Shown piece by piece: positions 4,755 through 48,268 of a DNA stretch of 64,000 nucleotides. Both the position numbers and the translations under genes were made by a program. Under the pieces are notes generated by a model that made no database searches, was not told where the DNA came from, and saw only the letters and a list, made by a program, of their open reading frames with translations. The first letter of the stretch is position 1. Every line of letters starts with the position of its first letter. The stretch is from positions 47,500,335-47,564,334 of the forward strand of contig JAUZTB010000118.1 in NCBI GenBank assembly GCA_034780895.1, in the 5' to 3' direction. The DNA is from Rhynchobatus australiae. Taxonomy: Eukaryota.

Positions 4755-6330
4755 CTCAATTTAAATAGAGACAGTTACCTAGGTATGAAGGATGAATTAT
4801 CTGGAGTTGCCTGGAAAAATAGGCTGAAGGAAAGGTGAATAAATGAGCCATGGCAGATATGTAAACAGTTATTTCATAATGCTCAGGAGAAATTTATCCC
4901 AATCCAAAAGAGGGACCCGTTGAGAAAGATGAACAATGTATGGTTACCAAAGCAGGTCNNNNNNNNNNNNNNNNNNNNNNNNNNNNNNNNNNNNNNNNNN
5001 NNNNNNNNNNNNNNNNNNNNNNNNNNNNNNNNNNNNNNNNNNNNNNNNNNNNNNNNNNGGGACCCGTTGAGAAAGATGAACAATGTATGGTTACCAAAGC
5101 AGGTCGAGGAAAATATTAAATCAAAAACTAGAGCATACAAAGTATTAAAAGCTAGTGATGGGCCAGAAGACTAAGAATTTTTCAGGAATCAGCAGCAGAA
5201 GACTAAAAGTCAAGAGCTATAGTGGATATATAAAAAGGAAGATGATGATTAAGGTATGTGTGTGATTCCTGGAGAGTAAGACTGCGGAATTAATAATGTG
5301 AAATAAAGAAGTGTGATGTAAGTTAGGCCAATACTTTGCTTCAGTCTTCACAGTGGAGGACTTTGCAAATGTCGCCAGGATAACAGATGGGTTATTTTCC
5401 AATTGGAGGGAAGAACACGTAACAATCCCTATCACAAGGGACAAAGTATTACAAAAACTAACAGGACTAAAGACAGACAAATCATCAAGACCCAGTGGTC
5501 TACATCCAAGGATTTAAAGGAAGAGGCTGCAGAGATAATAGTGCCATTGATTGAAAATTTTCAAAACTCACTGAGTTCTGGGAGGGTACCTATGGATTGG
5601 AGAACCATAAATGTGATGCTCTTGTTCAAGAGGGAGGGAGACAGAAGGTAGGAAACTCTAGGCCAGTTAACTTAAGCAAGATGCTGGAGTCTACAATGAA
5701 GGAAATAAAAGCTGTTCATGGCTTTGTGAAAGGGAAACTATGTTTTACAAATTAGGTACAATTCTTTGAGAATGTAACAATTGAGGTCAGTAGAGGGGAA
5801 TCTGAAGTTGTAGTGCAACTTGGATTTCCAGAAGACATTTGACAAGATACAGCGTAAAAACTACTGCACAAGGTAAGAGCCCTGTGTCATGGGGTATTGT
5901 GTTAACATTGACTGAAGATCAGTTATCAGACAGAAAAATGAGAGTCAGAATAAATGGATCTTTTTCAGACTGAAAAGACATAACTGATGGAGTGCCCTAA
6001 GGATCAGTCCTTGGTCCTCAATAATTTACTAGCTACATTAATGACTTGGAGTAGGGAGCAGAATGTAAGATATCCAGGTTTACTGATGACACAAAAATAG
6101 GTAGAAGAACATGCTGTGATGAGGATATTTAGACTCTGCAACAGATTATAGATAGACTGAGTGGATAGGCAAAACTTGGCAAATGAAGTTTAATGTAGAA
6201 AAGTGTGAGGTAGGAGTAATCAAAAGGCAGTCTAAATGGAGAGATCCTTCAGAGGAATCTAAGTATTTTTGTGCATGAATCATAAAAGGTTAGCATGCAC
6301 ATTTAGTAAGTAATTAAAAATGCAAATAGC
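4755..6330 (+). mobile_element. CR1 LINE ORF2 (reverse transcriptase) fragment with stops and frameshifts
   Basis: Motifs LKEEAAEI..PL..IFQ.SL..G.VP.DWR..NV..LFK (ORF 5403-5651), HGFVKGK, LDFQK.FD, GVP*GSVLGP and FTDDTK. Confidence 0.85.
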
Positions 6331-10015: not shown

Positions 10016-13000
10016 ATTTTTGTATTTCACATACCATCTCTTTCTGTACTGGCAAATGTTCTTGAACATCTATTAGAACATTACTTTAATGGAAAGGTGA
10101 TAATTCTATGAAAGAAAACATGAGGGATTAGCATAATGAAAGATAGTCACAGAAGAAGATTTTTTTGTAAAAAAGTTGAGTATATGGGATTATTTGATAG
10201 TTTGACGATTGCACCTAAGAATAGAACAAGAGCCCATTCTCTCACAACGACTTCGCCATACCACTGTTGGGAGATACAAAGCAGAGGTTATGTGATTCTT
10301 CATGAGGAGGAAAGAAGGGAAAGTCCACCTTGAAAAAGTTTCGGGTAGCCTCTTAACGTGCATTTACATTGTGAACGGGATTCAACTTTTCACATCTTTT
10401 CATAACTTTGGGTTGGAGAGGTTTATTTCTGAATGCAGTATGTACATTTATATCGCGCATTAATACTAATTTCCCATCATTCCATTTACAGTTTCTTTCT
10501 ATGTTTTTTTTCTAGTTCCTGGCACGATTTCTTTTGATGATTGATTGATTGATTGGCGGATCACAATTTAACCAAATGCCTTGATCTGAATGCTCGTGTG
10601 CTTATCTATCTGATATTTATTTGTTAATCTTATTATTTGCCCATGTACTTTATCCATTTGGTATTTCCTTTTAAGTTTCTGTAACATTGTTTTCTAAGAG
10701 TGAATGACATTTATCTTACATTTTCTTCGACAATTTTGTTTTTTTTTGCATAGTTCATCTGCTATCGGTTGGCTTTTTTGGACTTTGATGGACAAGGAAA
10801 ACCTTTTTTTAAGGCACATTATATTTACATCCGAATTGATAGTTTTATCAGAGACAACTTAGTTCCGTTCGTTGTCTCGCAACATTGTACAATATTTTGG
10901 AGCTATTTATGATGGACAATTCACTTTTCTATTCCGTTGCATATTATATGCAACAGATCAGTGACCAGTCGATGTGTATATGTTAATTAGTGTCATCACG
11001 GAAAGGCAACAAATTCAAACATGAACATTTGACTTGACTTCGTCATTGATTCCCACATAACGAACTCTGAGCGCTGAATGTCTCCTTGAGGCTATCTCCA
11101 GCGCTATGTCACTTGAGGCCAAGGAACAGGATGGCTAAATTGTCTGTTTCTGATATGGAGGAAAGATAACATATACACATATATCATTTAAAAAAAATAC
11201 TAGTTCACGTGTTGGGAATATATAGAATTAGGCTTCGATCTACTGCTTACAGTAGATTTTGAGATGTTCCGAGCTTTAACACAAAGACTTATCTTCCTTG
11301 AAACTCTGAGTTCTAATCTCTAATGCGCGAAATGATGACAGGTACCATATTTTAATCGTACTTTTGAGACGTACGTACAACAAAATGTGCAGGTGAAAGC
11401 CTTATGAATCAGTAGATACATCAAATACAGAAAATTCAAAGTCAGCGTCCGTCCACGTGGTATTTAAATTTTGACCAAGGTAAAAGGCTTAAGCAATGAG
11501 CTGCAAATTAATATTCGTTCTGTTTATATATTTCATTACATTAAAGGAATAAATGGTGGTTCAGACTTCCTCATATAGCTTTTCAAAAATATGCTTGCTT
11601 ATAGCTTAAACTGGAGACATTCCAGCATCTATAAATGCAGAGGGTATTCACATTAAAAACAACTTGGGCAGTATATTCCGGTTATTTTGCTTTCACGGTA
11701 CTGAAAATCATCAATTAGACTGCCATTTTCCCTGTCTGTTTATTGACTAGGTGCAAGAGGTTATTCCAGCCGTGCTCTTCAGGTGACTCGGGTTCATTGA
11801 TCTTTTTCCAGGGCGATGTAAATCTATGTATTCCACTTATAATCATCACCTCTGGTTCCGTTCATTATTCCCCCATCAGGAAAAACTCCAGTGGAAACAC
11901 TGCAGCAGATCAAAGGTCACATTAGCGCCTAAATCAGTGGATCGGTGGTAGTACTTGAAATCCTCCTCGAAGTACCGGAATGGGCTTCGATGCGATTCTG
12001 AGAAGTAGCTGAAGATTTATGTGGCAAATAGGGTTGCTGAATTGCAAGTGAAGCACAACCTTTGTCAACCTCTGAATTTAAGACTTTGCAGACTCATACA
12101 GATCGGCCACATTTTCTCTTTAATTGCTCATGCGCCATACTCTGGAATCTTAAAGCCCAGTGTAGTTTTATCAATCATCAGCACTTGGAATCAACAAAGT
12201 CAATCACATAAAAGTAACTCCTTTTAAAACTTTGTTATTTCGGTTTCTCATTTTACCAAATGGCGACACTTGCAAAATGTGAGTACACCGAGATAATCAA
12301 AAGGAATGACAGCTAAATATATTTCCATATCCTTTCAATGTTAGCTGGGGGCTTATTGAGGAATTGATAGCTAAGACCACACAACCGAAGGAAGAACCTG
12401 GACTGCCGATGAATACACACAGCTTTATCGAGCACGATAATAATATTCCTACTTGTGAACACTCACATTTAGACAATTTGGATTATTCTCACCGATATCA
12501 ATTGAAAGTTGTGAAAAGGACTTCAAGAGTATGAAAGTTGTAAACCGTAAGCTGCTGCACTGAAGAAATGTAAAAGCAGAAAAAACTGTGTATATTTAGA
12601 TAATAGAACGACTACTATGATGAATGAAACCAATACTATTGATACAACGATAAATAATGATCGCAAAGGTTAGTTCTGGGTCCTGCTTCACTCGATATAT
12701 TAATGAATAGAAAGGACCAGCGATGGCAATAGCTTCAAATAATTATTGCGCCCTGATATCAGTTAGGGCGTTAATATACACAGTACATTTTAATGCGGTG
12801 TGGGCTAATGATACACGAAGTTAATCACATTGCAGATATTTACAACGCAACATTTTGAATATTTGGCTAAAGCAGGTGATGACAATTAAAGAAGAAACAT
12901 GGCACTCACATACTGAGTGTCAAATTAAAAAATAACTGAGAATTTTGGAATTGAATAAGTTCTGATGGTAATTATATTTATACATGTATAATGTGTGTAA

Positions 13001-15289
13001 AAAGAGGCAGCCTATATGTTCACTTGATCAAATTAATTTTTGTGTTTCGTGAGCAGAACCTAAAATTTAAGAGCTGTTCAAGACCAAGATCTGATTGTAC
13101 TCCATGAAAACGTCTGACTATGGGGAAACACATGGGATTTGTTTCACACATAACGTGGCATTAGAAATGATTATTTAATTTTTATGTTCCGAGTAAGCTG
13201 CGAGGGCTCCAATATAACTTCAAGTGAACACCCCAGCCCCTCCCTTTCATTAAATTGCCTCTTAAGTGAAAACAAACTATTAGCGATCTTCAGCTATTAG
13301 GATCAGAGTTAAGGTTACACCTTTAGGAGTATTGCGATCCTAAGCCAAAGGGCATTTAAATTCTTTTAAATATTTTAGAATGAAGATTTTCAATGTTTAA
13401 CACTGTAAGTTTAGATAAAGTTTATCCGTACTTCTTATTTATCAGCATTTCCAAATTCGGATTTTATAAAACATCCAGTGATCTGAATATGTGCATTTGG
13501 TTTGATGTGTTACATCTACTTTACAGTTGATATTTAGTTGCTTCATAAAGTCGCAAACAGTTCAATTCTGTGTCAATTGTCCAATAGCTATTTTTGATTA
13601 TTTGATTATATTAATTTTCTAATAAAAGCATTTTAGGTAATCAGGATCTAAGCGGCGATCCTGTCTAAACCCACCTGTTTTAGTCTATGAATGAACAAAT
13701 GTTTAAATATACGATTAAGACCATCAACTAAAGCATTTTATCTTAGATCTTAATATATTGTTATTACATGACAAAATATTGGCGACAATATTTCTTCCCT
13801 TAGGCTAAGTTGTATCTAAGGCTATATCATATTGGGCATTTTATATTCTTTGAATTTCATCTCTGACCCGAGTGCTCTTCAGAAACTCGAAAAACAGAAC
13901 ATGTAGCCCACCGGCACATCTCTGCAGAACGGATAATTCATGTTTCCGACTGAAATCCGTTAGGGATGAGTCAAGAATTGTTTTTTTTATCATAAACACT
14001 TCCACGTGTTGTTCTGGCTCTTTCAAGAGCAAAATAAACAATATTTTTAAGTGTTAGAGTAATATGAGTCGAAAACTGATGTTAGATGTGTGCTAGAAAT
14101 CATGCTTTGAGCTTTCCCGTGAGGTTATACCCAGCTAAGGCACTTGATCTGAGTATTGCTTTTATATATAGTGAGTCTGAACGAGCGTTGTTATGGTGTT
14201 ATATATGTAAAACATACTGAAAAAAAATCAAAGTTCCAAGTGTCGTCAAAGTGACCCAGGTTTCAGTAACTCGAGGTTTTTAATGAACTCATTTGCGTTT
14301 TTGCAGGACGATGTAAGCACGCCCAAAGAAATTCGAATTTATTATATAAGAGACACTGACGGAAATGTGTAAATTCACAGACAGTTGTTGGTATTTGAAC
14401 TGCTGCGAGACTTTCCCATTGACACGAATGAATTAGTATTTAAAACTTCCTTAAAGTTGCATTGCGGTCACCGGTTAAAGGTCAAGTGCGGCAGTAACTG
14501 AACATCTGAAATGCCTGTGGAACAAGTGCAATGCTGTGCTAGCAATTGCTGCACATATTTTCTACTCCAATTTTGATACCACTTTAGCTTGTGTTGCAGA
14601 CAGAAATATGGCCGAGTGAGTCCGCTTCGCCAATTTCTAACCTTGGGTACAGTAATCAGTCAATAGTTTCTCATAAAATGTGGTAATAAGATTGTAGCAA
14701 ACATTGTAGCAACATAAAATGTAGCAAATACTATTTTATATTAGAATAATGTCAATTTTGTGTGATAGTACGAGCATGGGGGTTGGAGGATGAGCAAACG
14801 TTTGGTAATGTGCCCCCTCCCATTAAGAGTCAATTCGATACAATTTATAAACAGCGGCGCCGTATTTAAGAAGAAAACCGAAAGCTAAACAAACTCTGAA
14901 TGTACGGCGTCCCCTCTGGTTGGGGGTGGGGTGGGGGCATAAAATTCTGCCCCTGGCTGTAGATAAAACTATCTGATGTGGGTTTTTTTGTGGGTAAATT
15001 GAGGAAGGAGGGTTAGGCAGAGAGTGGAGTGGTGAGAAAAGGCTTTAATTATTCAGAATGTTAGAGTGATGCTTTGATCGGCGTGTGATGCGGTGTTTCA
15101 GAATTCCCGTCCATAGCGATCCTCTGGTGCAAGTATTTGCAAATGCCAGGCATTGTAAACAGGGTGGAATCAGGAGGCGAAAGAGCCAGCCCCAAAGTTA
15201 CCGAGTGCCATAGGTGGGAGTGATTTGTCCGGCAGATGTGAGAGTTTTACTTTCTTTTCGCTGTATCGAGGGACTTGGCGATTTTTTTA

Positions 15290-15456
15290 AGCGAACAGGA
15301 CATGATCTCACATGTAGCGAGCTCTTTTAGTTCCTTAATCATTTCACGGTTTGTTCAGAGCCTTTTCTCCACCTAAAACGTTTAGTTTCGGATCAATGGG
15401 CAGCACCAAAGACGCGACGGGGTAGCGGAAGAGTCAAATTATCCGGAGCCGACAAA

Positions 15457-15498
<42 letters not shown>

Positions 15499-15558
15499 CG
15501 AAAAGGAGAAACTTTTTTTCCAGCCTTTTCACAAAGGATTCGAAATACCACAACTAGT
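15290..15558 (+). promoter_or_regulatory. pax5: Pax5 exon 1A 5' leader / proximal promoter region
   Basis: GAACAGGACATGATCTCACATG...TTTAGTTCCTTAATCATTTCACGGT...CCACCTAAAACGTTTAGTTTC closely resembles the human PAX5 exon 1A leader as I recall it. It lies directly 5' of the 1A ATG. The TSS cannot be determined. Confidence 0.7.
15457..15497. repeat. (CA)n microsatellite in the exon 1A leader
   Basis: Direct reading of about 20 AC units with one interruption. Confidence 0.95.
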
Positions 15559-15598
15559 ATGGAAAAAAACGGCAGCGCCCTCAGGAGTATCCGATCAG
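15559..15598 (+). CDS. pax5: Pax5 alternative first coding exon 1A (MEKNGSALRSIRS + G)
   Basis: Strong Kozak AGTATGG and donor CAG|GTAGGT at 15599. The phase-1 end joins exon 2 as G+GG=Gly-HGGVNQ. It resembles human 1A MDLEKNYPTPRTSRTG. Confidence 0.85.
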
Positions 15599-18500
15599 GT
15601 AGGTTTATAAATCGTTCTGTGAAATGTACAAGTAATTCGCAAGCATGAAGTGGCTGCATTGACAACAATCGGGCGTTTATTTTGTAGAGTTGAACAGTAT
15701 TCAGTGGTTATAAAAAACTATCAAGACTTAAGACAATTTGTTTTTTTAAAGTGAAATATCTTAAATAATCAAGATAGCCTTTATGAACATTCAAGTCTTG
15801 GAAACTGTTTAAAGTAAATTTAATGCTCTATGAAAACTTAAAATGAACATTCAGCAGAAGTAAAAGGAAAGTATATCTCTGTGCATGGATAACGGCGATG
15901 GCACTGACGAAATGTACGGTTTCCAGGAGGTGTCTGGTTTACACTGGATTCAGAGTTTCTCCATCAAAAATGAGCTTTGTAACTTTTTTATTACTCTCTG
16001 TGGGCGATTCCGGGTACAGTGAAGATAGATCAGGGGTCATTTCTGAGGTCCAATCAGTTAATTATATTTTAAAGCAAAATTATTTCACATTTAATTGCTT
16101 TTTGTTGAACATTTTCAAAGTGTTGGTGTCACTGAGCAACAGAAAGCTGTAGGAATCTGGTCTGCAGCCGAAAGTGTTAGGAATAAAAAAAAAGCTGCAA
16201 TTCGCCACAAACTACTGCTTTCGTGTGCGAGGGAATGGGTCTGAGCTCTTGATTGTCTGTGTATATGATCGTGTGTACTTGTGCGCTCGTTGATTGAGGA
16301 TGTTTATCGAATTCTATTTTGTGCTGTTTCGCAACATAAAAATAGCCTAATGGCTGATTTCGGCGCCCTGTCACTGCCTTGTTTGCTTTGTGCATTCTTT
16401 TTTCAAATATGTGTACAGTTCGATTGATTCATTGCGGGTGGGGAGAAACTGGAAATTGCTCATTCTGGCTTCTCTTTGGGAGATTATTAGACAATCGCTG
16501 CGATTGACCTGTGGGTGAATATCTACCTTCCCCCATCCCAGCAACTGCGTTTAAGTTAGCACCGCCACTCTGTCTAAACAAAAACTCGAAATGTGAAATT
16601 AGGGTGTGGGGCGCGAGGCCCAAGGATTAACTGATCCCGTTCAAATTTGTAGATAAGCATAAACGTTCAAATTACAGCATCTTAAAAGGACAAAAGGCAA
16701 AAACAAAAACTAAACTGCCTTTAAAAAAACTGCTCTATCCTTTTCTCTGAAGATCTATGGGCCCGTCTGCCCCTAAAGACGTGTGATCATTCAGATGTAC
16801 GCCCTTGTTTTGTGCAGACGGGTGCCGCTATAGGAAAATGAAACTGAATTAAATTGACTTTTGGATTTTCATTTGCCCCTATTTTCTCTGATTAATATTC
16901 GTCGTTTGAATAATTCTAAACATTTTATCGGCAATTTTAAACCACACAGCTGCCACTTCGAGGTTTTTAACCGTGTGTTTTGAACAGAAGTAGATGGATT
17001 TGCCAATAACTTTCGTCATTGCACCAAGGCGTACTGAACCTTTAGGGTAAATCACGCTCCTTCACGGCCCTCGGATCAATTTGTCAACGCAACACCCAGT
17101 CCCGTTTCCTCCGATAAATCCAGTTTTTTTCGCTTGTAGATATTTCCTATTAAAATGCAATCCGAATATTGAATGGACGGGTGCCATTTTCATGGAACTG
17201 TTCGAACCCCCGTGCTCTGATATAGTCTAAAGTCTAGGAAATAGGACTGCAAGTATAATACAACTGGAAAGTTGTATTTGTGATCTGGTTCTTCTGTGCT
17301 TAGACTGTGAAATATTGTTTTATTTTCTTCGGTTTGTCATCTCACCTGTGGACGCAGCTGATTCCGTAAAACGACGTAATCTCCATTGAGTAGCGTTAAA
17401 TCGTTACCAATATCAATCGCCTCGATATACCGAGCACAAAACAAAACGGACGCTGAGATCTTATTGTTGTGAACAATGAGGAAGAAACAGCTTACATAAT
17501 TAGCGATAAAAGCAGGGGATGTATCGCTGTGTGAAACGGCATATAAGTTTCCGAGAATTTCAAGACACGTTTTTTTTACTCTAATTTAAACATAAATTCA
17601 ACAGGTTTGTTCACCATTCTATAAACCCAGACCAAAACGTCCATTACTTGACTTGTCAAGGATGAGGTCGGAGGATCTTCCCTCAACCTTTACCATTCAC
17701 TGCCTCACACACCTCCCACTGCCCTCGTCTCTTTTAAATATTTAATCCAGATAATAGACGACAGTTTATGTCGAGAGAATCGAGTAATTCAAGGAAACTC
17801 AATCACGAGTTCCAATTCTTAATGCAGGAAGTCCAATGCCGATGCAACTCGGTAACCGATGGCATTCTTAAAATCGCAGTTTGCCCATCACCCCTTCCTC
17901 TATTTAAAATAACACAAGGCCGTCAGCAGTCAGTTGATTTACGGGGCGCTCTTTTAACAGGACAGATTGCTCTTCCTTTCAATGACAATGCGTTAAAATA
18001 AAAGAAACAGAATAGACGATTCGCAGACTGGATCCAAAATGTTTCAATATAAAGGAAAACATCCCACATATTGACCTCAAGTACGCAGCGTATTAATTTG
18101 AAATCTGTCGCATAGTTCACGTGGAATCACCGAAAACAAAGAGACAGGGTGTGAGATCCTGTGCCCTTCACCCCCTGACTGACCCCTCCACCCTTCCCCA
18201 GTTCAACTTTCGAAAGGACCCTGCCCAGTTATCGATCATAAAGGGCACTGGTTGCCGTGCCTGACACAAGAATGAATTTGTGCCATTCTAGGACATTAGC
18301 TGCTTTTCCTGTCTGTGACCCGTGAAATAATCTATATCATTGTTTACTTTCAGCTTTCTGGCTGACAGATGACAGTGTCGAAAGCCTTTGTATCAGCACG
18401 TGCGAGTCACGCTTGTTCGGTGTGGTCGGGCCTGTTTTAAGGTGCTGCCTTTTAGTTAATTAGTTGCCCTTTTGATGATGAACTTTACATCATCTGCGTG

Positions 18501-26930: not shown

Positions 26931-27389
26931 AAACACTATGGAGGAGACTGAGCGCGACTGAATACAGAGCAGGGGGCCAGCGCACTCCGGGGAAACAGGA
27001 ACCCGCCTTTGCACACACAGCGGACAAATTGCACAGGAAAACGCCAAAAAAAAAGAAGCTGGAATTCTTAAAAGGATTTTTTTCCGGGTGTGAACGATTT
27101 CGAAGTTAAAATTCACTGCTGTCACTGAGTAGCAATTGGATTCATTTTTTGGGGGCATTGCATTGCATCTGACAAACTTAACTTTCACGTTTCTTGCACA
27201 ATCCGCCTGAAACCTTGAGGATCACAAAGCTGTAGAACCTACAATTAGTGGCTGGGATCGAGATCTTCTTCTGGGTTTGCGTGGGGCGCTGCTCACCCTC
27301 TTTTGTTTTTTGGGAGTATAGGTGAAGGGGTTAAATCCAGACCAGAAAATCGAGGTTTTCTCCGAGTTGAAGACCGGCTGCGCCTTTTC

Positions 27390-27432
27390 ATGGAAATCCA
27401 CTGTAAGCACGACCCGTTTGCAGCAATGCATA
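27390..27432 (+). CDS. pax5: Pax5 alternative first coding exon 1B (MEIHCKHDPFAAMH + A)
   Basis: Nearly identical to mammalian PAX5 1B MEIHCKHDPFASMH. Donor GTAAGT at 27433; A+GG=Arg continues into HGGVNQLGG. Confidence 0.95.
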
Positions 27433-29880: not shown

Positions 29881-30046
29881 GGCATGGCGGGGTGAATCAG
29901 CTCGGAGGAGTCTTTGTGAATGGCCGCCCTCTCCCCGATGTTGTCCGGCAGCGAATCGTGGAACTGGCCCACCAAGGAGTGAGACCCTGCGACATCTCCA
30001 GACAGCTCAGAGTGAGCCACGGCTGCGTTAGCAAGATTCTGGGCAG
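29881..30046 (+). CDS. pax5: Pax5 exon 2, paired domain N-terminal part ([55 protein letters not shown])
   Basis: Polypyrimidine tract with TACAG acceptor, donor GTAAGA at 30047, 166 nt. Confidence 0.98.
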
Positions 30047-37533: not shown

Positions 37534-37773
<240 letters not shown>

Positions 37774-38228
37774 TAATTGACCCTCAGCCTTCACAACACG
37801 GCGGCCTCAAGCCGTTTTTAAAAAAAAACTTTACAAACGATATTTGGAGGAAGTAAACAAGAGGATAAAAAAACCTCTGAACACTTAACATTTAAAAGTA
37901 ATATTTAGTTTCCTTCATTTTGTTTTCTAAAGAGTTGGACCCCCTAACCATGGGGTAGCTCTCTAAGTGCAGGACAAATCTAATCTCCCACTGGAGCAAT
38001 TATTTCTTAGGCTGTTACCCCTTTGATCAGTCATTGACCTCTGTTTTTACTATGTTCCTTTTTCCTAAGGAACCTCTTTCTCTCATCCCCTAATCTGTTG
38101 GCTCTTTTTCTGCTACATTTATCAGCTTCCTTCAAATTGACTGCTTTTAGTGTACAATATTTCTTTATTTCACAATCTTTGTCCTGTTGTTCACTTTGGA
38201 GATCATAAAATGTAGTTCTTTTAATTCC

Positions 38229-38853
38229 TTATTTGCACCTCTTCCACCCTGGTCTGCTGCATTCAGTGCTCACAATGTAGCCTCCTCTGCATCGGTGAAA
38301 CAAAGTGTAGACTAGGCGACTGTTTTAGCAGAGTACCTGTGCTCAAGCTTCCATTGCATGTCAGTTCAACTCCCCTTCCCACTTTCACACTGACCTGTCT
38401 GTCCCCGGCCTTCTCCATTGCCACAGAGAGGCCAAATGCAAATTCAAAGACCAGCATCTCATTTTCCACTTGGTTAGCTTAAAACCCAATGGTAGAAGCA
38501 TAGAATTTTCCAATTCCAGGTAACTGTGTTGATCTCCCACACACATTCACCTGTCCATCTAGGTTTCTCCTGCCTTTGTTCAGCTTTCCCATTCCACTCC
38601 CCCACCTGGTTCTATCTGCCTATCATCTGGAGCCTCATCTGGTTCCACTTATCACCTACCTGCCTCTATCACAGCTTTCCCTTGTACTTATGTCTACTGG
38701 CACCCTCTTCTCTCCCCTCACCTGTTGTAAGATCTTGACCTGAACCATCTACATGCACCTTTTGCCTCCACAGATGCTGTTTGACCCATTGAGTTCTTCC
38801 AGTGTTCTGTGCTTTGTTCCAGATTCCAGCATCTGCAGTCTCTTTTGTCTTCA
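38229..38853 (+). mobile_element. Penelope-like element 3' fragment: decayed GIY-YIG endonuclease plus terminal repeat
   Basis: From 38231 it translates ICTSSTLVCCIQCSQCSLLCIGETKCRLGDCF (compare VYCI.C..C...YIGET.R.L..RF). Later come GLLHC..EA..K...QHLIF.L...PNG..IEFSN and then the CACAGATGCTG...CCAGCATCTGCAGT repeat. Confidence 0.8.
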
Positions 38854-40474
38854 ACTAGATTTTCCCCATGTTGAACATTTGGCTTCTTGCATTGCCCTTA
38901 TTCACACGTATGGCCAAATTATCAGGCAGGACTTCAGATGGAACACTTACTTCTCTTGCTCAATTGGGTCCAAGACCAGTTTACCTTCTTATGACATTTT
39001 CTCATCAATTACTCTTCATTCCTGATTGCCTGTATTTGTTTAGTGAATCAAATACTGCTCCTAAAGCCTCTCATCATTCNNNNNNNNNNNNNNNNNNNNN
39101 NNNNNNNNNNNNNNNNNNNNNNNNNNNNNNNNNNNNNNNNNNNNNNNNNNNNNNNNNNNNNNCATCATGATACCCTTTAACTTGTCTGAATTTGCACTGT
39201 TGAAATTTAAAATATATAATACAGTGCATTTCTCCAAATGATTCCTTTGGTTTCTCAAAACAATAAAGTTGTTACATTTCTCCTACTTTTCTCCTTTTAT
39301 ATCTATCACTTTCAAAATCCTGGTTTGGGATCACTGATTTTAATTTCAATGCTTCTGTGCATTTTCTATACCTCTTTGCCTCATGATTTTATCTTCACTT
39401 TTAAGATCCTCCTTAAAAGTCACCCCTTTAACCATCCAGCCTAGACCTCATCATATGTTTTAGCATCTTTTCCTGTTTGATTATACTTCATGAAGTGCCT
39501 TGGAGGATTTTTATTTATGTCTGTGTGATATAAATGCAAATCATTGTTGAGTTGACCTGTTCTGTGGAGTCAGTTTCTACATTTTTTATTCTTGGTTTGG
39601 AGAAGCAATAATCTGCAGAAGGAAAACAATGGTATTTGTAGCGCATTCTTGATAAAAACCTCAGAGCAACATTGATGGAGAAATCCTAGGAACCACCCTC
39701 ATATTCTAAAATATTGTATTGAATAACTTTTCTTTTCCTATCCCAGGACAAATGAGATCAAATGGAATGTCTGCCTTGTTTACCTTCACTAACTCAGAAT
39801 AAGGGATTAAAGCAGGGACCTAACCCAACTCTGATCATAATGGCTTCCTGTTTTCAATGTTTAGATTTGATATGCTAAACTAACAGGCACCTCAAGCTAG
39901 GCTTTTCCTTTCACCAAAATGATGATCTACACCAACGTGAGGAGTTCTTAATGAAATTAAAGGTTTTACATTTGTAACAGATATGAAAAACACTGAAATG
40001 CACTATGCTAGACATACTTCAATGGCCTAGAGAGTAACAGAGGAAAGAAAACAAAGCGATTGAATCTCCCAGAAACTTTACATCAGTTGAATGTCATTAA
40101 AAAATAGTGTTGAAGCAGTCGTATACAACAGGCAGAACACGTATTGAAGGTAAATCCCAAACCTGGTTCACTGATGAAAGCAGGAGTAGTTTCACCGCTG
40201 TAACATCTTCCTGTAACAGTGGCGGCTATGATTTAGTTTCATTAATTGAATAAGAGCTACATTATTCAGCAGCATTAATAGGCCATTCTTTGTAAAGTGC
40301 TGATTACAAAACTTGTCTGCACATCAAATTGTAATAAACCTTTTATTATTAAAGAAAAGTAACATCAAATTGCATCTCTGTTTAAAAGACAAACATATAT
40401 TGCATATTCTTTGAAATCCTGGATTTGGAGTTCCCCAAACCCCTCAAAAATGTAGACTCATTTTAAAAAAAAAT

Positions 40475-40805
40475 CTGGGCATTACTAGCAAGGTGAGCAA
40501 TTATTGTCCTTTCCTAATTGCCTTTGGGAAGGCGGTGGTAAGCTGCCTTCCTAAACCACACCAGTTTATCTGATGAAGCTCCTTTCACAATGGTATTATG
40601 AGAAAATTCCATAATTTAGACCCAGCACCAATGAAGGACCTGCAATATATTCCCAATCAGGATGTGGTGTGACTTAGAGGGCAACATGCAGATAGTGGTG
40701 TTCCCATGCTCCTGCTGTCCCTTTCCTTCTGGGTGTTGGGGGCTGCAGATTTAGGAGGTGCTATGGGAGTAGCCTAGGCAAGTGACTGCAGCACATCTTG
40801 TAGAC
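40475..40805 (-). mobile_element. LINE (CR1/L2-related) 3' end
   Basis: The minus strand resembles an elasmobranch LINE C-terminus (..FRKAAYHRLPKGN*) with tail GGCAATTAGG..CAATAA.TGC. A related + copy lies at about 51101-51195. Confidence 0.55.
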
Positions 40806-40999
40806 AAGGACCGTATACCACAGAGATCAATAGCCCGGATCAATGTATCTCACAATTAGGCTGTCCCCTACCTTAAGAGACACTCAAGAAATAATGTCAC
40901 AAAGTTTACATTGAGAGTTAGAACCTTGGATCAGTGGTATTACAGTTGCTTCTGAAACTGCTTATTGGCTTCTGCACCACTCCAGTATTTGAGCACAGA

Positions 41000-43085
41000 A
41001 GGATTTTAGAATAGGTGCAGGAGCAGGCTAGGTCCTCTCATGCATGTTCCGTGATTCAATGAGTTAATGACTGAAGTGATCTTGGCCTAAACTCCACCAA
41101 TGCTCAATTCCTCGAAGGTTTAAAAAATCTATCCAAGTTCTTGACTCCCCCACTAGAGAAATCATTCTCCTGGTATCTATACTGTGAAGCCCCTTTGGAA
41201 TCTTGTTTCTTTCTAAGTTCCAGAGTCAACCCATTCTAATTCATCTTTTCTCATAATCTCTCTTCTTTACATGGAATCAATCTAGTTAACATTCTCCACT
41301 CTGCTTCCACAAAAAGCATAGTCTTACGTAGGTAGTGTTCCAGGTGTGGCATCAGTAAATCCTATCCAGCTGAAGCAAAGCCTTCCTACCTGCGTACTGC
41401 ATCCTCCTTGCGAAAAACGTCAACGTCCCAATTTGGAAATTAAGTCTCAATGAGCACCAGTATTCAAGAATAAGTTTTCTTAACTAATACTCTGCTTTTT
41501 CCACCACAGTGAAGAACTTTTAATTTCTCCATATTTGACACTATTTGCCATGGTACTCATAGAGTCATAGAGTCATACAGCATGGAAATAGGTCTTCCAG
41601 CCCACCAAGTCTGCACTGATCATCAAGCATCCATTTATACTAATCCCATTTTATTCTCCCATATTCCTATTAACTTCCNNNNNNNNNNNNNNNNNNNNNN
41701 NNNNNNNNNNNNNNNNNNNNNNNNNNNNNNNNNNNNNNNNNNNNNNNNNNNNNNNNNNNNNNNNNNNNNNNNNNNNNNCCCATATTCCTATTAACTTCCC
41801 CAGATTCTACCAGCCACCTATACTAGGGGCAGTTTCTGGTGGCCAATTCAATTACCACCCTGTACATTTTTGCGACATCAGAGGAAATTGGAGCACCCAG
41901 AACAAACCCGTGCAGTCACATGGAGAATGCACAGACAGCATCTGAGGTTAGGATTGAACCTGGGTCACTGGAGATGTGGGGCAGTAACTCTACTTGCTGC
42001 ACCACTGTGTTGCCCATTTGGTCTTTGTAAACTATTAGTGTCCTTTTCACAATTTATTTTCCATCCACCTTTGTAACATCAGAATCTTTTTTGATACAAT
42101 GTATCCAATCCCTTTGTCTATTCTTTAATATAAATTGTAAACAGATGAGAATCCAGCATTGATCCTAAAGGCACCCTTGTACTTATAATTTGCCAACCTA
42201 AAAATGAATGGTATCCCTCCTCTTTGCTTTCTGTCAGTTAACTTATCTCCTACCCTTACCAACGTATTGCTGCTAATACAATGAATCCATATCTTGTGCA
42301 GTAACTTAATGAATATCTTTTGGAAACTTAAGTACGCTACATCCACTCGTTCCCAAAGTCCATCCTGCAATGAACTCAATGAAATTTGTCAAACACAATT
42401 TCTATTTCATAAAAAAACATGTTTTCTGTGCTTAATCAGATAAGTTCCTAATTATCTGGTTACTAGTTCGCTAATAATAGATTTCAGCAATTTTTTAATA
42501 GCAGATAATAAGCCTGTAGATGATAATCCTACTTTCTCTCTCCTTCCTTCCTTGGATACATTATTATATTTCCAGTTATCCAATCTGTTGGGACTTTTCC
42601 TAGTCCAGGGAATTTATGAAGCTTATAGCCAATGCATCCACAACCCCTACAGTCAACTCCATTAGAATCCTGTAATGCAGGCCATCGGGTCTAGTGCACT
42701 TGTCAGGCTTTAGACTTATTAGTTTGTCTAGTACTTTTTCTCTCATGATGATAATGCTTTAATTTATTGCCTTCTGATATTTCTTTTGATTTTTGGCATT
42801 TTTTTCAGTATCAATCCTGAAAACAGATGCAAAATATTTATTTAACATCTCTGCTATTTTCCCATCCCCCATTATTAATTTACCCATCCCACCGTCTCAG
42901 AGGCCAATGTTTATCTTTGCTCATTGCTTCCTTTTCAAATACCTGTAGAAGCTCTTGTAATGTTTTTACTTTTCTTGCTAGTTTACTCTGATATTTCATT
43001 TTTTGCACCTTTACAAAATTTTTAATTAGCTTTTGCTGGTTTCTTATAATTCTCCCAATCATCTGGTCTACCAGTATTTTTCACA
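41000..43085 (-). mobile_element. Decayed CR1 LINE interrupted by a SINE
   Basis: Minus ORF 42125-42379 (VDVAYLSFQK.F..LL.KI....DRKQR) is RT-like. CR1 3' UTR-like text lies at about 41000-41100. Confidence 0.7.
41558..42015 (-). mobile_element. HE1-like (V-SINE) tRNA-derived SINE
   Basis: The minus strand has a tRNA-like head (GGGCAACACAGTGGTGCAGC...CAGGTTCAATCC), a V-domain-like GGTTTGTTCTGGGTGCTCC and a CR1-type tail (..GTATGACTCTATGACTCTATG). Confidence 0.8.
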
Positions 43086-46000
43086 TTGTAAGAAACATAA
43101 CCTCAGCTGATATTTCAGCACACCAGATGAAACAAGCAAAATTGATCTGCCTCTTTTGAAATGAACTTAAAAGAACCATGGACTTTTTGTGACAAAGATC
43201 TTGTGGTTCCCTTGGTGGACTGACCAACATTCATATTTTAACTCTACAGAAAACAATGAATTCCATTTCTTGTTTGTGAACTTAGTAAGAGTGCAAAATG
43301 CTGCTGGATTTACTGACATTACAAGAGTGACTACATTTGAAAAATACTTCATTCATTTTTAGGCACCATGAAGATATGAAAGACTTTTCTCTAGTGGTCA
43401 ACTAACCCTTACTCGTCCTTTACAACTAGCTCAAAAGTACTGAAGATAGGAGCCTATGACTGGATGGGCTCTATCAGCTGTCACATGATTTGGGNNNNNN
43501 NNNNNNNNNNNNNNNNNNNNNNNNNNNNNNNNNNNNNNNNNNNNNNNNNNNNNNNNNNNNNNNNNNNNNNNNNNNNNNNNNNNNNNNNNNNNNNNNNNNN
43601 NNNNNNNNNNNNNNNNNNNNNNNNAAAACATACATTGCTCTAGATCTTGAAGAAATGGCATTTAATCTGAGGACTAACTGCATCAAAACATCTGTTATGA
43701 GTAGAAGTTAAATTTTGCTCTCTCTGTCAATCCCTTCCTGAACTGTTATTTGTGATTTCCCAACCTGTAACCCCTCTGCTCCTACCCATATTCCTGTCCT
43801 TTCTCATTATAGCAATTTATTCTGGTTGGGGTTTGTGGAGGGTGCCCATTCTTCACATGAAAGTTAGGCTGCTCTCAAGGGTTAGATTTTTTTCTGGGAA
43901 AATTGTGAGCAGACCTGTAGATCCTTTGAAGCCTCCAACGTTCATTGTTGTGCATGTCACAGACTTTGTTCTCTTTGTTCAGTTGCAATGATAATATCGT
44001 GAATGTAATTGATTCTTAGTGAACTGAGTTTAGCATTTGATTCTCTCCAATGTTTGTATGATTGAGATATTATATCTGATCCAACATAAGAATGATTTTA
44101 CCCCACCCTTAAAATGCCACTGTGATTCCCTTCTAGAGTTGATAACTTTAAATCTGTCCAAATGTCAAAGGGCCACATCCTTTAATATACTTACTGAACA
44201 AAGAGAGCATGAAATAATTTGGTTAACCTCATCTCCTGCTCCTGGGCATGCCATGCTTTTATATGAATATACATCAGGCTGCGATTATATTCACTCTTGA
44301 TCAGTTTATAGCTGAGCTCAAACAGGATAGAGGATTAACCTCTAATTAGTTACCACTCATCTGGGCAATAACTGTAATGTANNNNNNNNNNNNNAAAGGT
44401 GCATTTCACTGTGTGTTTCAAGGTACATGTGACTAATAAAGATATCTTCCATCTTATTTCCAAGTCTAATGAAATGAATGGGTCTTTTGTTTTTAAACTC
44501 AATAGTTTCCATTCCAACAAGTCCCAAAATAACAGGTTATATTGAAAACTTTGCCAGAATCTTTCTGTCTCAGTTGCTTCAAATTTAATGCTACCAGTGT
44601 TTGAATTATGTACCTTGCAGGAGAATATGCGAATTTATGTTCTCATAACCCCTCTGACTCTAATCAAGCTTTATTTTGCTCTCATTTTCTCTCTTCACTT
44701 GTGTAATTAATTTCCTGGTTCTTTTGAACTCTTATAACTTAATATCCTTTCTAAATTGGGTGAACTGGACGTGTCCACGGTATGGCAAATGCAGCCTCAA
44801 CATTGAAAGGTAATTTTTGGATTGTATCTCTTGAATTCACATTTACATTCCAAATGGAGCATCTCAATGTGATATTTGGTTTCTTAACTACCATGAAATA
44901 CTGATGGTTTTAATGTGCTGTCCAGGCAAACTTAACACTGAATTTTACTTGCATTTGGCACACAATGGAACCAGGTTTCTGTTCCCACTGTTTCACTGAA
45001 ATGACTCTAACCAAAGTCAAATGGCAACTTTTGTGACTAACTTTGGTACACCATCTCCTCAATTTGTCAACCTGTGAGGAGTTTTTGAAATGGACTTCTA
45101 CCCCATCATTCCCTGTCCACCTCACCAACACGTTTCCTCCATTTCCCAGTTCAAAGAAATTTGAGTCCATTTTTATGTCCATACTTCCTCATCTATGTGT
45201 TAGATTTCCAAAACTCATCCACAGGCATAGGATCAATTTCCATATGTTTCTTAGGGGTTAAGTGGGCTAATATCCAAAGGCTTCTTTTGGATTCAGTGAA
45301 CTAATACCCACAGAGTTCTGATAGATTCATTCAACCAATACCCACTGGTTTGTGATGAGTTCAACCAATACCCACAGATTTCCAATATTCATTGGACAAA
45401 TAGCCACACTTTTTTAATACTTTCAATTGACTACGCTGGGTTTTGTGTTCAATTAGGTGAAATGATGGAATGTAAACATTACTGTAGTGACCAGACAGAG
45501 ATATGGGGACAAGAGTAAAATAGCTGCAGATTTTGATACCAAAATATACTGTATGTATGGGGACTGCAGAGACCCTTTGTTAATTCTTTGACTTTCAGGT
45601 ATGTTCTTTTGGGTGGTCTGTCTGCTGCGTCATTGAGGTGAGAAAATGTGCTCTGTGATGCATGGCCGGTCACAAGTATTAAGGGTCATTCATACCCTTT
45701 GGCTTTGGACCTTGAAGAGACACATTTCTCCTTACTGAAGACTTAGTGCGTAAGAAAGGGTACATACTTTACAAGCACCAACTTCCTTGGATATAGCATC
45801 GTTAATATGACAGAATGTCCCAATGTACTTGACTGACTATACACCGTGAACCAATAAATAATTTGGTTAGAATTGAAATTGCCTATATGGCTGCAGTTCA
45901 GTGTTACTTCTTCCCTCCCCTAATGTTGAACATTCACAGTCCTAGTCAGGAATTAATTATGATCATGCCAAGCATGACAAATGAACTTGTGTGTTCCTTG

Positions 46001-46132
46001 TCCTTGAAACTCAATCCTTCTTGGAAAGCCAGCAATGACAGATCCAGATTGATTTTCCACAGGAGAATGTTTTGCATCTTGGTTTACAATGTCTCTAAAC
46101 TAACTAATCCTTGTTGTCATTGATACCCGTAG

Positions 46133-46264
46133 CACCAAGCACTGTGCCAGTGACTCCAATTCCTTCTGCTGCCACAGATTCAGCGGGATCTTCCTACTCC
46201 ATCAGTGGAATTCTGGGAATCACACCATCTAATAATGAGAATAACAAGAGAAAACGCAATGAAG
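46133..46264 (+). CDS. pax5: Pax5 exon 5 (octapeptide exon: [44 protein letters not shown])
   Basis: Branch-like CTAAC/CTAAT near 46100, acceptor CGTAG|C, donor AAG|GTAAGT at 46265. [17 protein letters not shown] and NKRKR match Pax5. Confidence 0.93.
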
Positions 46265-46837: not shown

Positions 46838-48268
46838 AAGATCCAAAATTGACTTGGTCATAGAAGACAGAATATAGTGGTGGAGGGGTGTTTCTCTGAC
46901 AGGAGGTCTGTGACTGGTGATGTTCCGCACAGATCAGTGGTGGGACCTCTGTTGTTTGTGATATGTATAAATGATCTGGACGAAAATGTAGGTGTGCTGA
47001 TTGGTAAGTTTGCAGATAACATAAAAATTGGTGGAGTTGTAAATAGTGAGCAAGGTTGTCAAAGGATACAGCAAGATATAGATCAGTTGGAAATTTGGGG
47101 TGGAGAAATGGTGCATGGTGCTTGCTCCAGATGTGTCAAGTGTTGCATTTTTGGGAGGTAAGAGGAAATTATACAGTAAATGGCAGGACCCACAGGATCA
47201 TTGATGGTCAGAGGGATCTTGGGGTGCAAGTCCATGGCTCCCTGAAGGTGTCTACACAAGTGGATAGAGTGGTAAGGAAGGCATACGGCATTCTTGCCTT
47301 CTTCAGTTTGGGGCATTAAATATAAAAGTTGGGAAGTCATGTTGCAACTGTATAAAATATTGGTTAGGCCACATTTGGATTATTGTGTGCAGTTTTGGTC
47401 ACCGCACTATAGGAAGGGTGTGGAGGCTCTGGAGCGGGTTAGGGTTAGGAGAGGTTCACCACCAATCACCTAACTCTCCTCTTACCCCTTCCCTTCTCTA
47501 CCCAGCTCCATCTGCCTATATTTTTTTCCTTAAGTGTTTTCACCTGTCACCTACAAGACTCTGCCTACCCTCCTCCTCCCCTACCGGCTCCATCTGCCCC
47601 TCATCCAACCTCGTCTGGTTCCAGCTATCACTTCCTGGCCTCTTGTCTCATCCCTCATTCTTATTTCTATATTCTCTCTACACTCTCAGTCTTGATGCAA
47701 AATTTTGACTCAAGATGTTGACCATCCCTTTGCCTCCACAGATATTGCTTGACCCATTGAATTCTTCCAGCAGTTTGTTTATTTGCTCCAGATTCTGGCA
47801 CCTGCAGTCTCTTGTGTCTCCATCCACCAGGATGTTGACTGGATTGGAGAGTGTTAGCTATAAGGAGAGGTTGGACAAACTTGGATTGTTTTCTCTGGAG
47901 CGTCAGAGGCTGAGGGATGACCTGATAGAAGTTTACAAGGTAATAAGTGGCATAGATAGTCGGAGTCTTCTTCCCCAGGGTGGAAATATCAAATACGAGA
48001 GGGGATAGGTTTAAGGTGAGGGGGGAAAGTTTAAAGAAGAGTTGTGAGACAAGTTTTTTACACAGGGTGTGGTAGGTTCATGGAATGCATTGCCATAAGC
48101 AGATATGAAGGTAAAGTTTAAGAGACATTTGTACAGATACATTAACAGGCAGGGAATGGACAGATACAGATCTTGGGCAGGCAGATGGGATTAGTTTAGA
48201 CTGACATCATGGTCAGTACAGACATGGTGGAACGAGGGGCCTTTTCAGGTGATGTGTTGTTCTATGTT
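46838..48268 (+). mobile_element. 5'-truncated CR1 LINE (RT C-terminal half and 3' UTR)
   Basis: ORFs 46877-47161 (VP..SVVGPLLFVICINDLD..KFADNIK), 47056-47319 (QRDLGVQVH) and the end of 47715-48008 (SYKERLDKLGLFSLE..RLR.DLIEVYK). Tail TTCTATGTTC. Confidence 0.9.
47461..47823 (+). mobile_element. Penelope-type terminal repeat nested in the CR1
   Basis: Similar to 38530-38853. It splits the CR1 text AGGTTCACC|AGGATGTTG. Confidence 0.75.

Follow-up and report, generated by a model that had tools for sequence, protein, structure and literature searches.

Results

PAX5 and its exons in a batoid ray

The window, by which we mean the whole stretch of 64,000 nucleotides of Rhynchobatus australiae DNA analyzed here, carries PAX5 on its forward strand, with two alternative first exons and with exons 2, 3 and 5, which encode paired-domain and octapeptide regions.

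15559 to 15598, plus strand: PAX5 exon 1A, coding part (13 codons and one base; donor GTAGGT)
27390 to 27432, plus strand: PAX5 exon 1B, coding part
29881 to 30046, plus strand: PAX5 exon 2, paired domain (55/55 residues identical to PDB 1K78)
37536 to 37733, plus strand: PAX5 exon 3, paired domain
46133 to 46264, plus strand: PAX5 exon 5, octapeptide region (42/43 residues identical to Narcine and to Pristis)

The protein in PDB 1K78 to which exon 2 is identical is human PAX5, with PAX8 and PAX6 more distant. A protein search with exon 5 returned 130 relatives with rays on top, and all 104 named proteins among the best 120 were Pax-5, paired-domain, hypothetical or paired-domain-bearing proteins, a count that omits 16 unnamed matches. 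The 14 residues read from 15559 are identical to the Narcine bancroftii model at every position and to Pristis at 13/14, and these matches, together with those of exon 5, identify the window as a batoid ray's PAX5 locus. The preliminary description of this DNA had placed a short open reading frame (ORF) in the leader of exon 1A, and the matches of exon 2, exon 5 and the 1A peptide bear out its gene identity. Its statement that the factor is dosage-sensitive agrees with passages in the published literature, where half the normal dose is described as promoting leukaemia. Exon 4 (about 20 residues) was not found in 37734–46132 by tblastn or by an acceptor–donor scan and may be hidden in an N gap; the exons beyond exon 5 fall outside the window.

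Several other features of the locus were observed. A 30-kb CpG-rich domain (8001–38000; observed/expected ratio of 0.6–0.95 against 0.08–0.23 outside) spans both promoters and exons 2 and 3, ending near exon 3, and looks like the unmethylated valley of a developmental regulator. At exon 1B, an AG acceptor (27320–27321) opens an in-frame extension of 23 codons before the 1B ATG (27322–27432), and 36 of 37 residues of the extended exon match catshark models in which exon 1A is spliced onto a longer exon 1B; this is either a real 1A–1B spliced elasmobranch isoform or a 1B leader conserved at the nucleotide level. A donor-like GTAAG within exon 1B (27402–27408) would yield the short N-terminus of the Mobula and Heterodontus models. 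Frames at 61–588, 4839–5651 and 46853–48008 resemble decayed reverse-transcriptase fragments, which we take to be of the LINE type that is presumably common in shark and ray genomes.

Exon 1A is older than mammals

In mammals, exon 1A is the first exon specific to B cells and provides the main B-cell form of PAX5. Its counterpart in the ray (15559–15598) is a short coding first exon that lies upstream of exon 1B, has a phase-1 donor and is spliced to the paired box, and its ATG at 15559 lies in a strong context (A at -3, G at +4). The text and Table 1 of PMC6132355 place the appearance of exon 1A with mammals. This is contradicted by the 1A-type N-terminus of named non-mammalian proteins from chimaera to birds: it was found in rays, sharks, chimaera, bichirs, amphibians, reptiles, birds and mammals, a distribution across named proteins which shows that exon 1A predates mammals and is common to jawed vertebrates. 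Compared with human and mouse (PMC2504290, PMC6132355, as far as these sources describe them), the ray has the same gene with two alternative first exons joined to exon 2 and a homologous 1A peptide (5/12 residues identical to Pan and 6/12 to mouse), and its leader would be of similar length if transcription starts at 15310–15341. It differs in a peptide that is two residues shorter and in an AC repeat in the leader.

The upstream reading frame occurs at chance frequency

The sequence upstream of the 1A start codon contains several short frames and one repeat.

15302 to 15376, plus strand: 24-codon ORF MISHVASSFSSLIISRFVQSLFST, from ATG to TAA (G at -3, A at +4; adequate context)
15312 to 15317, plus strand: start-stop ATG TAG in weak context, nested inside the 24-codon ORF
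15236 to 15241, plus strand: start-stop ATG TGA in the same frame as the 24-codon ORF
15396 to 15425, plus strand: second upstream ORF (uORF), 9 codons (T at -3, G at +4)
15463 to 15496, plus strand: (AC)17 microsatellite in the leader

The 24-codon uORF with a purine at -3 that the preliminary description had reported is thus present in the sequence. Its ATG (the uATG) lies 257 nt before the main ATG and in a different frame, and it closes at a stop of its own before the main ORF begins, with 182 nt between the two. The 9-codon uORF lies within the mRNA for all candidate start sites and may be a better uORF candidate than the frame at 15302.

Frames of this kind (an ATG preceded by a purine at -3 and opening at least 24 codons) were found in 79 of the 177 gap-free 300-nt tiles on the plus strand, and in 22%, 53% and 82% of dinucleotide shuffles (5000 shuffles) for leaders of 300, 450 and 684 nt, respectively. 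As this is chance level, the ORF alone carries no weight, and everything hangs on the conservation claimed for it.

Two ways of joining this region to the PAX5 protein were rejected. The ORF peptide is not a mis-annotated PAX5 N-terminus: it is out of frame with the main ATG, and among the 154 named PAX5 proteins there is none that starts with it. Ahead of the main ATG, the frame of this ATG is itself open from 15331 (76 codons, 15331–15558). It contains no ATG, CTG, GTG or TTG, its only near-cognate starts being ACG, AAG, AGG and ATT, and it is absent from all named PAX5 proteins; HMMER returned 19 weak matches (E of 5e-6 to 1e-3), and in every one of them the best stretch overlaps the part encoded by the repeat. 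An N-terminal extension from 15331 was rejected on these grounds.

The peptide and a PAX5 1A uORF in databases and catalogues

The ORF peptide is hydrophobic (GRAVY 0.97). Protein searches used the stop-to-stop frame that encloses the ORF (44 residues), which is a weak query for its shortness, and found no relative among 5.8 billion proteins at 24–77 residues and, at 78–2000 residues, six candidates of which none had an E up to 10. The exact 24-residue peptide had no protein match, none of three queries matched Pfam, none matched PDB, and the best ESM Atlas score (0.85, against a recognition level of 1247) was below recognition. In the literature, no report of a PAX5 1A uORF was found among titles and abstract openings, "uORF" does not occur in a PAX5 review, and a 17-nt motif from the window was not found in the texts searched.

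Genes in the catalogue of Crowe and colleagues were looked up by accession numbers that we assume to be right. Among its 204 human–mouse conserved uORFs, in the part of the source available (PMC1402274), PAX5 is absent and the control DDIT3 is present; the list depends on 2004 RefSeq leaders. The human and mouse tables of Mackowiak (9 of 16 files) hold three PAX5 rows, none of them a uORF, and only the mouse row is informative because the leader of the human transcript is 10 nt. Ribosome profiling of mouse lymphocytes (PMC8504629, available in part) gives two Pax5 rows among the matches listed, both for one uORF of 21 codons that belongs to the 1B leader and lies 6.7 kb past the 1A ATG; with both LPS B-cell sets present, no row for a 1A-leader uORF is among these matches. 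The accessible tables of 7,264 ORFs had no PAX5 match in a run that had no positive control, and those of Raj 2016, as far as available, lack PAX5 and the control as well and are hence uninformative. Absence from any such catalogue depends on which leader was annotated. Further sources cited, each available in part, are PMC9456430, PMC4301804, PMC5737561, PMC8894207, PMC10032668, PMC4940163, PMC13010147 and 10.64898/2026.08.06.743305.

Transcription probably starts inside the reading frame

The annotated 5' end of human PAX5 presumably rests on CAGE, and we assume an offset of +3 between hg19 and GRCh38 at this place. The human gene region ends at chr9:37034268 in the accessible part of a preprint (the assembly, by inference, being GRCh38), and exon sizes in a table of PMC4568590, likewise seen in part, put the human 1A ATG at hg19 37034028. 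The annotated human 1A leader accordingly measures 237 nt with the offset and 240 nt without it. Mapped onto the window without gaps, the human end falls at 15319–15322, inside the ORF and 17–20 nt past the uATG; if the 34-nt AC repeat lacks a mammalian counterpart, it falls at 15285–15288, upstream of the uATG, and because of the repeat any distance carried over from mammals has a margin of about 34 nt. An annotated mouse 1A exon, with a leader of 277 nt, would reach 15282. In chicken, multiple start sites are reported in the title of a cited work, and PMC2504290, in the part available, describes a TATA-containing promoter for human 1A.

The following candidate core promoter elements lie in the region.

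15284 to 15291, plus strand: weak TATA-like box (2 mismatches to TATAWAWR)
15307 to 15312, plus strand: initiator-like BBCABW (+1 at 15310, eight bases past the A of the uATG)
15327 to 15345, plus strand: two initiator-like YYANWYY (+1 at 15329 and 15341)
14844 to 14870, plus strand: better TATA matches (1 mismatch), with no initiator at the expected distance

These were defined by the general TATA and initiator consensus motifs. The box at 15284 precedes the motif at 15310 by 26 nt and predicts a +1 near 15310–15316, and the human end, mapped ungapped, falls between the initiator-like +1 sites 15310 and 15329. TATA sites with two mismatches occur at 4.1 per 100 nt in the window and number 27 in 14700–15560; after 14740, only that at 15284 has an initiator 25–33 nt downstream, and it is the only TATA-like site of the ray that gives a leader of human length (245 nt). 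Pairs of a relaxed TATA motif, which was written after the sequence had been seen, and an initiator number 16 on the plus strand (0.26 per kb). The YYANWYY pair lies inside the longer of two blocks quoted as identical in human (see below); two initiator motifs are found in 202 of 799 75-nt tiles, which makes the pair weak evidence alone.

A start directed by the TATA sites at 14844–14870 would produce a leader of 666–685 nt with 10 uATGs, and with another 1-mismatch site at 14960 the upstream sites together would give leaders of 570–685 nt. An EBF-type palindrome, sought as an anchor for the start site, was absent from 13000–15600. Overall, the annotated end of the human gene makes a start downstream of 15302 the likeliest geometry for the ray, which is the case that the preliminary description had named as speaking against its own proposal.

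Constraint appears to act on nucleotides and not on a peptide

The claim of deep conservation goes back to two blocks of the human 1A leader that the preliminary description quoted, subject to verification. As quoted, they are identical to 15302–15313 and 15326–15349 of the window (36/36 bases), and the human leader presumably does read this way, with the reservation that the quotation may have been primed by the window itself. The agreement with human presumably runs on for some 20 nt beyond the stop of the ray ORF, and the length of a T run would determine whether this stop falls in frame. The claim of a leader more conserved than the coding part of exon 1A stands or falls with these quoted blocks.

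Within the blocks, which were hand-picked because they match, 0/11 degenerate third positions had changed, against 7/14 in exon 2 (Fisher p = 0.008), and four-fold sites alone gave 0/4 against 7/9 (p = 0.02). The exon 2 reference was a comparison by eye of the window with published Pax5 primer and probe sequences, from sources available in part, over which the protein is invariant. If the quoted blocks are right, the wobble bases look frozen, which points to constraint on nucleotides and not on a peptide. Coding exon 1B is frozen too (7/7 third positions), so nucleotide constraint is compatible with translation.

Near parallels include conserved-peptide uORFs of animals (CPuORFs; ESUCA, PMC7530721; Crowe, PMC1402274), which in the accessible parts of these sources are AUG uORFs of at least 20 codons in regulatory genes, with conservation claimed across orders as here. 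They are defined by a Ka/Ks below 0.5 (PMC7530721), whereas the quoted blocks show zero synonymous change and PAX5 is not in the list of Crowe as far as available. The conserved peptide that the preliminary description had entertained is disfavoured by the frozen wobble positions, if the quoted blocks are right, and by its absence from three uORF lists of limited coverage.

Folding was also considered. The segment 15260–15440 folds worse than its shuffles (z +2.09; 195/200 shuffles fold as well or better), 15329–15561 is unremarkable (z -0.98), and Rfam gave no match at the gathering score and one match at E 0.14, on the AC repeat. A structured RNA element, the other form the proposal had taken, fares poorly on both the fold and the Rfam search. 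The results that bear on the proposal of the preliminary description, in which the leader may tune translation, lean against it. The position relative to the annotated human end points to a promoter.

Discussion

The reading that we prefer, and to which we give about an even chance, is that 15284–15349 is the core promoter and start-site cluster of exon 1A, conserved as DNA letters, and that the reading frame across it is incidental. On this model the weak TATA-like box at 15284 and the initiator-like motifs would be bound by TFIID, and most initiation by RNA polymerase II would fall between about 15310 and 15341. Starts at 15310–15341 would place the uATG at 15302 outside the mRNA: it would lie just before the cap site and be missing from the majority of 1A mRNAs. 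These would have a leader of 218–249 nt with one or two short uATGs in weak context ahead of a strong main start. A minority of transcripts starting further upstream would include the uATG and so acquire an ordinary leaky uORF that damps PAX5 output whatever the peptide.

Unlikely, yet deserving of serious attention, is the reading in which the uORF is conserved and translated and represses PAX5A regardless of its peptide, with the main start upstream of it and with leaky scanning or reinitiation; in a sharper form, the choice of start sites on either side of the uATG would switch the repression on and off. Under the scanning model of translation initiation, the purine at -3, the 24 codons and the 182-nt gap suit leaky scanning and reinitiation. 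The quoted human match covers the ATG and the next 9 bases, and a leader of mouse length (277 nt) would contain the uATG. PAX5 is a gene for which dose matters, and B-cell mRNAs bearing uORFs are translated less well (PMC8504629, in the part available). However, the annotated human end maps within the frame, the uORF is not called in LPS-activated mouse B cells among the matches listed in the accessible part of that study, and the frame occurs at chance level.

Hox mRNAs offer a comparison here: those with conserved inhibitory uORFs reportedly have main starts in poor context, whereas the main start of ray PAX5 is in a strong one and its uORF is a putative one. What the two would share is a dosage-sensitive developmental transcription factor and a uORF that is regulatory and not peptide-coding (PMC8892498, available in part).

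Distinctly less probable is a sequence-specific element of another kind, which could be a transcription-factor site just past the start or an unstructured site for an RNA-binding protein at the 5' end of the mRNA. It would explain constraint at the nucleotide level as well as the promoter does, if the quoted blocks are right, and the region shows an unusual lack of structure (z +2.1), a property of single-stranded binding sites; on the other side, no Rfam family was matched. A 2001 study reportedly found that the leader of human 1A contains a repressor element; this study does not appear in the three reference lists checked. In the accessible part of PMC7484617, the 5' hyperconserved elements resemble the present case as short blocks conserved at the nucleotide level near the 5' ends of transcription-factor mRNAs, and they do not overlap uORFs. 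They differ in that PAX5 is not among the table entries available, which argues against such an element here, although PAX2 and PAX6 are absent from that table too.

We consider it quite improbable that there is no deep conservation at all, the quoted human match being an artefact and the ORF a chance frame in an ordinary leader. The chance rates of 22–82% would fit, and the human match does rest on a quotation that the window itself may have prompted. Against this, the human leader presumably does read as quoted, and since exon 1A is common to all the jawed-vertebrate groups sampled, a shared promoter is expected.

The least credible reading, to which we attach hardly any weight, is a uORF or microprotein conserved for its peptide, in which the hydrophobic 24-residue product stalls the ribosome or acts in trans: the peptide is indeed hydrophobic, its identity to human on the quoted sequence (12/24 residues) compares with 5/12 for the 1A coding part, and 39 novel human sORFs date to the gnathostome ancestor (PMC4568590, in the part available), but the quoted blocks show no synonymous change, no relative was found in protein collections, Pfam, PDB or ESM Atlas (searches that are weak for a short query), and the available parts of the Crowe and Mackowiak lists do not contain it.

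Taken together, the analysis treats the ORF as real and ordinary and favours promoter DNA over a peptide. At long odds, the uATG may have been kept since the jawed-vertebrate ancestor at the 1A start cluster in such a way that a shift of the start by 20–40 bases gates a repressive uORF. If that were true, PAX5 would have a so far undescribed translational control, a built-in dimmer of its dose as old as B cells, and the site would be one at which non-coding lymphoma or leukaemia variants could act. On the preferred reading, in which this stretch is promoter DNA, the case warns that sequence conserved close to a start codon may be promoter DNA, in which an ORF has little meaning. For the B-cell form of PAX5, the stretch would then point to a candidate core promoter of ancient origin.
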